In this document: positions 45,667 to 47,602 of the stretch, piece by piece
How positions within the stretch are numbered: the stretch's first letter is position 1
Layout: each line of letters begins with the position of its first letter
From: Gammaproteobacteria bacterium
Lineage (GTDB): Bacteria > Pseudomonadota > Gammaproteobacteria > UBA4575
Assembly: GCA_965222615.1 (NCBI GenBank)
Contig: CBDCUI010000009.1
Span: forward strand, 214,454 to 278,453
Length of the DNA: 64,000 nucleotides
Direction: 5' to 3'
Translations under genes and position numbers: made by a program
The notes under the pieces: generated by a model
Database searches by the model: none
Told to the model about the DNA's origin: nothing
What the model saw: the letters and a program-made list of their open reading frames with translations, nothing else

Positions 45667-45782
45667 CCGAAAGCGGACATCAAGGTTAGCCAATGAAGAG
45701 AATAGGGCGCGTTAACTTTTTAATAATAGTTGGGGAGTCATAGATTGGCCGAGAGGGGATTTATATAGTTCTTTATTTTATA

Positions 45783-46199
45783 ATGTATGAATGGGAATTA
45801 ATGCTGCTAAAAAAACGTGCCAAAGAACGTGGTCGAATTGCTAGGCAAGAGCTCTTACTGGCCGACGGTGGCTGCATTAGTGCCGCGGATGCTGCAAAGC
45901 AACTGGGAATCACGGAGGTAGAGCTTGAGAGAATCCGTAGTTCTAATCAGTTATTGGCTGTTGATGTTGATAGCAAGTTTCAATATCCGATTTGGCAATT
46001 CGAGGGAGCAAATTTAGTTCCCGGATTACAAGAAATATTAGAAATACTTGGCGATGATGATCCGTGGTCGAATTTCATCTTTTTGTTGGGTCACGACTAT
46101 GCAGTAGATGGATGTCGTCCAATCGACAAACTTCGTGTAGGTGATATTGATTCAGTCAAACGCGCTGCACATACGTACGGTCATCATGGTGCAGTTTAA
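45783..46199 (+). CDS. Hypothetical HTH-containing protein of the element left end (possible Xre/MbcA/ParS-type antitoxin-like domain), copy in the degenerate element
   Basis: 138 aa. AADAAKQLGITEVELERIRSS HTH-like segment; C-terminal ...LLGHDYAVDGCRPIDKLRVGD... Near-identical to the 46998-47405 product from KERGRIARQ onward. Confidence 0.35.
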   Translation: MYEWELMLLKKRAKERGRIARQELLLADGGCISAADAAKQLGITEVELERIRSSNQLLAVDVDSKFQYPIWQFEGANLVPGLQEILEILGDDDPWSNFIFLLGHDYAVDGCRPIDKLRVGDIDSVKRAAHTYGHHGAV

Positions 46200-46399
46200 A
46201 TAAAGCAAATAATAGGTAATTTATAAACAATTCAATTCAACGCATACCTGGAATTGCTGGAAGCAAACCATTGCTCAAGTGTGTATGCGTCCCCACAAAA
46301 ATAATTGCAGAGCGATTTAAAGCCGGCGAATCAATTAGTGCGCTTGCAGTGGACTATGGTTGTAGGAACACAGAAATAGAAGAAGCGATTAGATTCGAA

Positions 46400-46539
46400 C
46401 TTTAGTCACAAATCTCCCGAAATAAACCTGAATTCCAGGTACTTACTTTTACTCCCGAACTTACACTCAAGTACCGAATTTTACTCCTGGGGGACTGATG
46501 TTTACTCCCGAAAAGTGCTGGGTATTACTAGGAATTACA
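46400..46539 (-). repeat. Tn7-like left-end-type terminus of the degenerate copy, with an array of TTTTACTCC(C/T)G transposase-binding-like repeats
   Basis: Read inward from 46539: TGTAATTCCTAGTAATACC-CAGCAC-TTTTCGGGAGTAAA..., closely matching the intact element termini. Three TTTTACTCCYG copies at about 20-bp spacing. Confidence 0.5.
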
Positions 46540-46997
46540 ATAGTCTCGAACCGATAAGGTGATTAACCATCTGGTTAATCGTTTTCTTAACATAATATAT
46601 ATTATGCGAAGTTAAATATGTGGGTGCCTAATAGAATTTGACGTCTCTTAAACATGTGTGATTCTTAGTAAAACCAAGCACTTTTCAGGACTAAAAGTCA
46701 GTACTTCAGGAGTAAAACTAAGTACTTGAGTAATTAATAAGACTAAAACTAGATACCTGAATTCATGATCTATTTCTAAAGATTTGTGACTTTAAAGTTC
46801 GAATCTGATGGCTTCTTCGATATAAGAGTCTTTACAGCCGTAATCCATAGCCAGCTCAGTAATCGATTCGCCGGCTTTAAATCGCTCTGCAATTATTTTT
46901 GTGGGGACGCATACACACTTGAGCAATGGTTTGCTTCCAGCAATTCCAGGTATGCGTTGAATTGAATTGTTTATAAATTACCTATTATTTGCTTTAT

Positions 46998-47405
46998 TTA
47001 AACTGCACCATGATGACCGTACGTATGTGCAGCGCGTTTGACTGAATCAATATCACCTACACGAAGTTTGTCGATTGGACGACATCCATCTACTGCATAG
47101 TCGTGACCCAACAAAAAGATGAAATTCGACCACGGATCATCATCGCCAAGTATTTCTAATATTTCTTGTAATCCGGGAACTAAATTTGCTCCCTCGAATT
47201 GCCAAATCGGATATTGAAACTTGCTATCAACATCAACAGCCAATAACTGATTAGAACTACGGATTCTCTCAAGCTCTACCTCCGTGATTCCCAGTTGCTT
47301 TGCAGCATCTGCGGCATTAACGCAGCCACCGTCGACTAGCAAAAGTTCTTGTCTGGCTATTCGACCACGTTCTTTAACACGCTTTTCTGCAGCACTAATT
47401 CCCAT
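46998..47405 (-). CDS. Hypothetical HTH-containing left-end protein (copy in the intact Tn7-like element)
   Basis: 135 aa, inverted near-identical copy of the 45783-46199 product. Confidence 0.35.
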   Translation of the reverse strand: MGISAAEKRVKERGRIARQELLLVDGGCVNAADAAKQLGITEVELERIRSSNQLLAVDVDSKFQYPIWQFEGANLVPGLQEILEILGDDDPWSNFIFLLGHDYAVDGCRPIDKLRVGDIDSVKRAAHTYGHHGAV

Positions 47406-47602
47406 CTCAGTATTATAAAGAATTAATCAAGTCCCCTCTTCGTTGTATGTATCACTCCCCAACTATTGCACAAAAGATGGGGAGCGAATCATACATATTA
47501 ACTATCTGTTTTATAATAATATTTTCAATTATTTTGTTGAAAAAATAACATAACTAGAGTAAATTTCTCACCAACTTTTTGAGTAATAGATAAATAGTTG
47601 GT

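Follow-up and report, generated by a model that had tools for sequence, protein, structure and literature searches.

Mirror-image insertion of two Tn7-like transposons around a chromosomal dif site suggests dif as a probable attachment site

The 64,000-nt stretch of the gammaproteobacterial contig CBDCUI010000009.1 analyzed here (the window, within which all positions are given; L-numbers designate the database loci and contigs compared with it) contains an inverted repeat of 1.7 kb in which two transposon ends face each other across 117 bp. The question raised by this locus is why two elements should have been inserted so close together, in opposite orientation, at this particular place. The analysis has revealed that two related Tn7-like transposons were inserted independently in an intergenic region that bears the chromosomal dif site, and that the inverted repeat marks their junction. 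From the placement of both insertions, dif, or dif bound by XerC and XerD, is probably the attachment site of this transposon lineage (a probability of about 0.6 is given to this reading), and it would be read by a divergent TniQ protein, the dyad symmetry of the site allowing one insertion on each side. The features that define this geometry are the following:

46540 to 46656, no strand: spacer, 117 bp of native host intergenic DNA, from ATAGT (46540-44, flank of the orphan end) to ACATG (46652-56).
46585 to 46612, plus strand: chromosomal dif, made up of the XerD arm TCTTAACATAA, the central region TATATA and the XerC arm TTATGCGAAGT, with its centre at 46598.5.
45725 to 46539, minus strand: orphan arm, the dif-proximal (cargo-side) end of the decayed Tn7-like element 1, whose terminus ...GGTATTACTAGGAATTACA ends at 46539.
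46437 to 46532, minus strand: four 20-bp TnsB-type direct repeats of the orphan end, with starts at 46513, 46490, 46469 and 46437 (offsets 7, 30, 51 and 83; position weight matrix (PWM) scores 16.8-23.4).
46657 to 58280, minus strand: element 2, a complete 11.6-kb Tn7-like transposon with the ends TGTGATTCTTAGTAAAACC ... GGTATTACTAGGAACTACA.
46664 to 46758, plus strand: four packed 20-bp TnsB-type repeats at the dif-proximal end of element 2, with starts at 46664, 46687, 46708 and 46739 (offsets 7, 30, 51 and 82).
58133 to 58280, minus strand: tnsA-side end of element 2, where the TnsB-type repeats are dispersed, with starts at 58254, 58163 and 58133 (offsets 7, 98 and 128).
58281 to 58285, no strand: second copy of ACATG, the target-site duplication of element 2.

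The dif site was recognized by reconstruction of the empty site, in which 46540-46656 was joined to the DNA from 58286 onward and set beside the loci that carry orthologues of the 207-aa flanking gene. The sole block of the spacer conserved in these orthologous loci was 46587-46614. A 22-mer of this block, ACATAATATAYATTATGCGAAG, was found in at least 120 metagenome contigs from soil, freshwater, marine and gut samples, all of them with the consensus ATTTAACATAATATACATTATGCGAAGT between unrelated flanks, a consensus that corresponds to the XerC/XerD dif site in reverse complement. The site in the window, which on the minus strand reads ACTTCGCATAA-TATATA-TTATGTTAAGA, matches the consensus at 25 of the 28 positions and keeps the layout of 11 + 6 + 11 bp. 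Published dif sites include ACTTCGCATAATGTATATTATGTTAAAT from Thiobacillus denitrificans and GGTGCGCATAATGTATATTATGTTAAAT from E. coli, and a TATATA central region has been described in Hahella (PMC2731167). The XerC arm in the window is identical to that of the T. denitrificans dif, and in the XerD arm the differences are confined to positions 27-28, where variation is known (PMC2731167). The core of the site, CATAATATATATTATG (46591-46606), is a perfect 16-bp palindrome centered at 46598.5. Its central hexamer (46596-46601) is the palindromic TATATA, as it is in L130, and most of the other contigs carry the asymmetric TATACA. Only one match to dif was found in the window, which does not include xerC or xerD. 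An unoccupied dif lies upstream of the orthologous 207-aa gene in two relatives, at 333 bp in L006 and 284 bp in L130, and the reconstruction places it at 287 bp here.

With respect to dif, the orphan end is located 45 bp from the XerD arm and the end of element 2 is located 44 bp from the XerC arm. The centers of the 5-bp target sites are at 46542 and 46654, and their midpoint, 46598.0, compares with a dif center at 46598.5. Both elements are mirror images of each other, since their cargo-side, four-repeat ends face dif. The two host segments of 44-45 bp beside dif have no mutual similarity apart from dif itself, so they are not a palindromic duplication of host DNA. Offsets of this 44-45-bp type are within the range known for TnsD and for CRISPR-associated transposon systems. 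An earlier sequence-only reading of this locus, made without database searches, had taken the structure for two element ends rather than a duplicated host segment, and this was borne out by the terminal 19-mer TGTRRTTCYTAGTAAWACC (at 46539 on the minus strand, 46657 on the plus strand and 58280 on the minus strand; 3 occurrences in the window against 0.21 expected), by the 5-bp target duplication ACATG of element 2 (46652-46656 and 58281-58285) and by the non-palindromic host DNA beside dif.

Clusters of TnsB-type repeats were found only at the three ends when the whole window was scanned with a PWM derived from the internal 20-bp repeats. Tn7 carries its packed array at the right end, next to the target bound by TnsD. 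The packed four-repeat array of the cargo-side ends resembles this right end, and the dispersed repeats on the tnsA side resemble the left end (Tn7 end architecture is cited in PMC10132070). Judged by analogy of end architecture, the canonical Tn7 rule is kept, the packed end being the presumed selector-proximal one and the tns genes being at the other end. The facing ends had previously been labeled as left ends, a label that is correct by the convention of gene order because both of them are tnsA-distal.

In the proposed mechanism, a TniQ/TnsD-type selector would recognize the dyad-symmetric dif core, or XerC/XerD bound to dif, would recruit TnsC and would place the TnsA/TnsB transpososome about 56 bp from the dif center with the packed-repeat end closest to dif. 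Since the symmetry of dif is almost two-fold, the selector could engage it either way, so that each side would be filled once and a head-to-head pair would be formed. The sequence-only reading had noted, with good reason, that two insertions this close are unexpected in view of target immunity. Such immunity would be inoperative between the two diverged elements, or would have been overcome over evolutionary time. Four high-scoring TnsB-type repeats remain in the orphan, at 117 bp from element 2, and immunity of the Tn7 type, if it operates in this family, could have been evaded through divergence of TnsB and the ends or as a rare event. The TniQ protein of element 2 is 20-27% identical to those of its relatives, compared with 38-57% for TnsA, TnsB and TnsC, and this divergence of TniQ is what a change of target would produce. 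In a more specific and rather unlikely version of the mechanism, put forward tentatively, TniQ would dock on the XerC/XerD-dif nucleoprotein complex and not on naked DNA, as TniQ of the Tn5053 type does on resolvase-bound res; the symmetry of the complex would then yield a copy on each side, and immunity might not extend across the Xer-bound site. In Tn6022, proximal and internal insertions occur in genomes despite strong immunity in assays (PMC11014353).

Element 2 contains the genes listed below, in addition to a cargo cassette that is described later:

46792 to 46926, minus strand: 44-aa DUF433-like remnant, which weakly matches the C-terminal portion of DUF433 (E 2.6e-4).
46998 to 47405, minus strand: 135-aa winged helix-turn-helix (HTH) gene, from homology searches.
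52199 to 53785, minus strand: tniQ/tnsD-type target selector, 528 aa, with PF06527 at 25.4 bits, just below the 27-bit cut-off.
53798 to 54787, minus strand: tnsC, an AAA_22/TniB-type ATPase of 329 aa (AAA_22 at 1e-11, and a TniB match).
54800 to 56695, minus strand: tnsB, a DDE transposase of 631 aa, with weak matches to rve/rve_3 and TnsB chains as the closest solved structures (E 3e-4).
56673 to 57434, minus strand: tnsA-like gene, 253 aa, which overlaps the start of tnsB and is 41% identical to a protein of L002.
57717 to 58112, plus strand: XRE-family HTH gene, divergent, adjoining the tnsA-side end and present in all relatives.

The presence of these genes between 46657 and 58280, together with the flanking pair of ACATG, indicates that element 2 is complete and that it arrived in a single transposition event. 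By its sequence features, element 2 can be assigned to the Tn7-like transposons, because it encodes TnsB, TnsC and TniQ, has TGT...ACA termini with end-specific repeats and is flanked by a 5-bp duplication. Its TnsB is 45-50% identical to those of loci with complete tnsA, tnsB, tnsC and tniQ operons. These are seven related loci (L001-L004 and L127-L129) that show the same order of XRE, tnsA, tnsB, tnsC and tniQ genes and carry defense-type cargo. The 253-aa TnsA-like open reading frame (ORF) has itself no Pfam match, and its homologue in L002 passes the cut-off of Tn7_TnsA-like_N (30.5 vs 26.5 bits). The Cys/His zinc-finger columns conserved in the alignment with the relatives are present in TniQ. 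Cas domains were absent from the ORFs of element 2, no tandem repeat array was reported and no Rfam match was obtained, which indicates that it is not a CRISPR-associated transposon. A TnsE-like gene was not found in element 2 either, and TniQ is its only selector.

The orphan arm and its remnants, by which element 1 is known, comprise the following features:

45783 to 46199, plus strand: 138-aa winged-HTH gene of the orphan arm, from homology searches.
46271 to 46405, plus strand: 44-aa ORF of the orphan arm, a DUF433-like C-terminal remnant (weak match, E 8e-4, profile positions 19-55 of 56).
45666 to 45735, minus strand: continuation of the orphan backbone, which enters the inverted repeat of an IS30-derived miniature inverted-repeat transposable element (MITE) and is interrupted by an IS110-family element.
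44245 to 45680, minus strand: IS110-family element that interrupts the orphan (second copy at 40852-42303, 98.7%).
39204 to 39261, minus strand: last recognizable piece of the orphan, 58 bp, equivalent to 52100-52157 of element 2 (98%).

The homology of the orphan to element 2 runs past the arm, skips the cassette and resumes at 45666-45735, equivalent to 51780-51849 (97%), and it breaks off 42 bp before reaching the point at which tniQ of element 2 has its stop codon. The second half of element 1 was absent from the window in an end-motif search, in a PWM scan for repeat clusters and in tblastn searches with all Tns proteins. Weak tblastn matches at 16-22 kb were considered as Tns remnants and were discarded, as they are actually the host RibBA, Fur and FHA-ATPase. 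Element 1 is a relative of element 2 that has been broken up by IS110 and IS30 elements, and it has no tniQ, tnsC, tnsB, tnsA or second end in the window. Both IS110-family copies (40852-42303 and 44245-45680) abut AAAGCGGACAT, which is the terminal inverted repeat of the IS30-like element (42349-43609) and of its 280-bp MITE derivative (51835-52114), so that the IS110 element seemingly targets the inverted repeats of IS30 and the MITE. The DNA to the left of about 29.6 kb belongs to the host and is syntenic with a relative. Between this point and the orphan, a segment encoding a 2840-aa repeat protein and a 4HBT thioesterase (30167-39136) has a GC content of 0.43-0.46, compared with 0.37-0.39 in the neighboring host DNA. 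The relative L006 has PDZ, M48 and 77-aa genes in its place, and the segment is possibly foreign.

The inverted arms extend over 45725-46539 and 46657-47467 and are 86.9% identical over 1767 columns in a self-blastn against the reverse complement. A repeat search delimited core arms of 594 nt with 94% identity (45811-46404 and 46793-47386), plus weaker terminal pieces. Each arm includes the 138- or 135-aa ORF, a 44-aa ORF, four 20-bp direct repeats and a TGT terminus, in line with the gene, DUF433-like remnant, repeat array and TGT terminus listed in the sequence-only reading. However, the near identity that it had attributed to the arms is a mosaic. In a terminus-first global alignment, a run of 445 bp is 100% identical, and the identity beside it is 72% over 209 columns on the terminal side and 75% over 164 columns on the inner side. 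The decay of similarity toward the termini that had been described is therefore real, but the similarity also falls inward. Both copies of the identical run were located by the arm alignment:

45888 to 46332, no strand: 445-bp identical tract, orphan copy.
46865 to 47309, no strand: 445-bp identical tract, element 2 copy.

This tract spans the 3' two-thirds of the 138/135-aa gene, an intergenic stretch and half of the DUF433-like ORF. Since it covers both coding and intergenic DNA, coding selection does not explain its identity, and on a background identity of about 73% a run of 445 identical base pairs is impossible by chance. We infer that the tract results from a recent gene conversion between the inverted arms of elements that are otherwise about 25-28% diverged in their DNA.

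Several other explanations of this arrangement have been considered. The terminus region could be a general hot spot in which the elements landed near dif without recognizing it, the equal distances being coincidental. In this explanation, which is the main rival, the dif region tolerates and accumulates mobile DNA, or a TnsE-like route linked to replication termination favors the terminus and flips the orientation between replichores. The interval between the conserved host genes and dif is full of other mobile DNA, in which the IS110 family is represented by three copies and which also includes an IS30-like element, a MITE and the compositionally foreign 2840-aa gene; a mirror orientation is also expected from a pathway that senses the direction of replication, such as that of TnsE, and no further dif-adjacent copies of this transposon family were found. 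This explanation is nevertheless judged unlikely, given that element 2 has TniQ and nothing resembling TnsE, that two untargeted insertions within 117 bp in a genome of Mb scale have a chance of about 1e-4, and that, for the same end to face dif at such equal distances (45 and 44 bp), the chance would be about 1-2% even if both insertions are taken as being within 100 bp on opposite sides. Alternatively, each element could have used its own outer attachment sequence beside its tnsA-side end, dif being merely between two att sites. The tns genes of Tn7 are at the att-proximal end, and the tnsA-side end in L002 abuts the 5' part of an rsmI-like gene. However, L130 and L006 have conserved dif but not the host DNA that begins at 58286, which is an AT-rich promoter region in which no gene end, tRNA or Rfam match was found, so that it offers no RNA-gene att site. 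In addition, by repeat architecture it is the packed, Tn7R-like end that faces dif, and two att sites would have been needed that by chance placed the insertions symmetrically about dif, all of which makes the outer sequences quite improbable as targets.

The sequence-only reading had considered the structure to be centered on another palindrome, GATTAACCA-TC-TGGTTAATC, and had proposed it as a host protein-binding or target-defining site:

46561 to 46580, no strand: palindrome of the sequence-only reading, GATTAACCA-TC-TGGTTAATC, between the orphan end and the XerD arm.

The palindrome exists as it was described, with perfect 9-bp arms inside the 117-bp spacer. Palindromes of this kind are not rare, the window having nine with arms of at least 9 bp and loops of up to 6, and the chance that one of the nine falls within these 117 bp is about 1.6%. 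Its center (46570.5) lies at unequal distances from the two ends, 31 bp and 86 bp, which cannot explain both insertions, whereas the insertion midpoint of 46598.0 coincides with the dif core. When the spacer was looked for as an uninterrupted locus in relatives, as had been suggested, dif was found unoccupied at the syntenic position in L006 and L130, but the palindrome was absent from both. A role for it as a target or conserved host site has consequently very little probability. An assembly artefact, or a palindromic duplication produced by template switching at the terminus, is equally hard to sustain. A 445-bp exact inverted repeat can mislead short-read assemblers, and palindromic duplications do occur at replication termini. 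However, a duplication is excluded by the divergence of 25-28% in the termini and inner flanks and by the lack of relationship between the halves of the spacer, and the contig has 1.1 Mb. Diverged termini and a unique spacer also make a collapse artefact unlikely. The earlier warning that such a palindrome is prone to assembly errors holds for the orientation of the central 527-bp segment, the only part that a mis-assembly could flip, but the pairing of the ACATG copies supports the assembled orientation. A present-state inversion of this segment by recombination between the arms was rejected as well, because the ACATG duplication pairs the ends as they are assembled.

The reading of dif as the attachment site has to be weighed against several results. 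It is based on only two insertion events at one locus of one metagenome-assembled genome, and the selector of the orphan has been lost, a selector shared by both elements being a supposition. The extended dif is not perfectly symmetric, since its outer arms differ. No dif was found within the loci L001-L004 and L127-L129, whose TniQ proteins are very divergent, and no close relative of the two elements was found in the collections searched, the best non-self match of TnsB being 50% identical. The end motif was absent from the sets of genome contigs and metagenome contigs that were scanned, and no comparable Tn7-like end at about 45 bp from dif was detected by a repeat heuristic in about 120 other dif-bearing contigs. 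A TniQ peptide scan of genome contigs gave no relatives, and a comparison of TniQ with plasmids gave only distant matches of the N-terminal domain in Burkholderia. Modeling of TniQ by AlphaFold without an alignment was uninformative (confidence score, pLDDT, of 33), the binding of TniQ to dif or to XerC/XerD being a prediction only. In the host DNA, the GC skew is +0.061 for the 29.6 kb on the left and -0.013 on the right, with a peak of the cumulative skew at about 40-50 kb, and the four motifs resembling FtsK orienting polar sequences (KOPS), GGGNAGGG, all point toward 46.6 kb (4/4). Skew and KOPS-like motifs are weakly consistent with a replication terminus, as the skew evidence is weak when the right flank has only 5.7 kb of host DNA.

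Profile searches for TnsB, TnsC and TniQ in 120 dif-bearing contigs retrieved only L068, from a soil metagenome, in which the element end could not be delimited. This contig (680-5365 and 12700-13040) encodes a TniA of 727 aa, TniB, TniQ and a tyrosine recombinase of 546 aa. It has a region rich in GTGACA repeats that ends about 76 bp from dif (13011-13038), the transposase genes being at the distal side, as they are in element 2, and its TniQ has no detectable similarity to that of element 2. A different element end, TGTGCGTGTAG...AGAAATGTCCNCTTT, in which AGAAATGTCCNCTTT occurs twice, was observed 1 bp past the XerC arm in at least 8 of the 120 dif-bearing contigs (L016 at 1228-1290, L026, L042, L057, L070, L075, L110 and L113). 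In L016 a 468-aa ORF is located beside the end, and these ends are probably those of insertion sequence (IS)-type dif hunters like the IS1202 family. In L004, the beginning of a phage-integrase gene carries a dif-like imperfect palindrome, ACTTGTGATAATATGTATTATCATAACC (7768-7795), and the related Tn7-like element has its tnsA-side end about 640 bp away. In the window itself, just upstream of the 207-aa gene, there is another perfect palindrome, ATATTAGAATCTTCTAATAT (58497-58516), and conservation of the surrounding block in L005 and L006 makes it a likely operator.

As cargo, element 2 carries the 135-aa winged-HTH gene, the DUF433-like remnant, a 4.3-kb cassette and the IS30-derived MITE. The cassette includes three genes:

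47468 to 51789, plus strand: cargo cassette, found in element 2 only and bounded by CCCCAACTWTT cores.
47603 to 48253, in the cassette: tyrosine recombinase, 216 aa, catalytic domain only, with XerH and XerA as the closest solved structures.
48375 to 49379, in the cassette: IteA-like AAA ATPase.
49385 to 51694, in the cassette: IteS-like S8 peptidase.

The junctions of the cassette are at 47453-47485 and 51775-51810, and the orphan has an uninterrupted hybrid junction, CCCCAACTATT, at 45712-45745. This arrangement resembles the site-specific integration of a defense cassette into transposon cargo. The 216-aa tyrosine recombinase was considered as a selector that reads dif; it is unlikely to be needed for targeting, because its cassette was never present in the orphan, where the junction is unoccupied. 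The 138-aa and 135-aa proteins of the arms are 96% identical and consist of a winged HTH followed by an antitoxin-like C-terminal domain. Close homologues of them were not found, and a word-indexed search matched the 135-aa protein to itself only. With HMMER, this module (a winged HTH of the HTH_17/AbiEi_4 type plus a Rv2175c_C/Xre-MbcA-ParS-like domain) was placed in a large family of 1859 clusters at E<=1e-3, in which it usually forms the C-terminal part of proteins of 200-330 aa. The family of the 135-aa protein is uninformative on targeting, and so was its AlphaFold model without an alignment (pLDDT 47).

The dif site is among the most conserved non-coding sequences of bacteria. If the proposed reading is correct, homing to dif would give a heteromeric Tn7-like transposon a safe landing site that is nearly universal and would extend the attachment sites described so far (glmS, tRNA, comM, ffs and others) by a new class, and the transposon could be a candidate for a guide-free insertion tool of broad host range. 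The mirror double occupancy provides a natural test case for the relationship between selector polarity and orientation and for the reach and specificity of target immunity, and a perfect 445-bp inverted repeat around the site of dimer resolution may affect the stability of the terminus. If the link with dif is coincidental, the locus would be an ordinary pair of transposon ends in a terminus region rich in mobile DNA.

Among known systems, Tn7 and its site attTn7 (read by TnsD, downstream of glmS) share with the elements described here a TnsA-like protein, TnsB, TnsC and a TniQ/TnsD-type selector, TGT...ACA termini with end-specific TnsB-type repeats, a 5-bp duplication and an insertion point located tens of bp from a conserved single-copy chromosomal sequence. 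Unlike in Tn7, the conserved neighbor is dif and not the 3' end of a gene, both sides are occupied in mirror orientation, the tns genes are distal to the presumed target, tnsE is missing and the Pfam matches of TnsA, TnsB and TniQ are weak or absent. The "res hunters" Tn5053 and Tn402, which encode TniA, TniB and TniQ and no TnsA, insert beside the res sites of serine resolvases in a single orientation. They are a conceptual analogue, in which a TniQ module acts beside a dimer-resolution site, res being that of plasmids and transposons and dif that of chromosomes. Integrative mobile elements exploiting Xer (IMEXs), such as the CTX phage, use dif as a universal landing site, but their integration proceeds through Xer recombination inside dif and leaves dif-like sites in duplicate. 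In the present locus, a single, uninterrupted dif is found, and transposon ends and a 5-bp duplication delimit the elements.

The IS1202 family (ISAjo2, ISAba71) has been described as "dif site hunters" with a TnsB-related transposase (Harmer, Pong and Hall 2023, PMC10132070). Like element 2, its members have TGT/ACA ends with an extra internal binding site, generate a 5-bp duplication and are associated with dif or pdif (PMC10132070). However, they are elements of about 1.5 kb with a single transposase gene of 441-457 aa, located 5-6 bp from the XerC arm only and in one orientation (PMC10132070). Element 2 has 11.6 kb and five core genes, including those for a TnsA-like protein, TnsC and TniQ, is 44 bp from the XerC arm and, with its relative at 45 bp from the XerD arm, forms part of an arrangement in which the XerC and XerD sides are both occupied, and it falls outside the IS1202 family. 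Tn6022/AbaR of Acinetobacter (Correa et al. 2024, PMC11014353) is also Tn7-like, shows internal or proximal second insertions despite measurable immunity and is linked to Xer, as the element itself carries an XerC-like recombinase and a dif-like site. It differs in that it targets comM via TniQ and TnsF, its dif-like site being recombination cargo and not an insertion target. No description of TniQ-directed targeting of chromosomal dif was found in the literature searched, and the new point that emerges from these comparisons is the mirror-symmetric placement around dif of Tn7-like elements that probably have dif as their attachment site.

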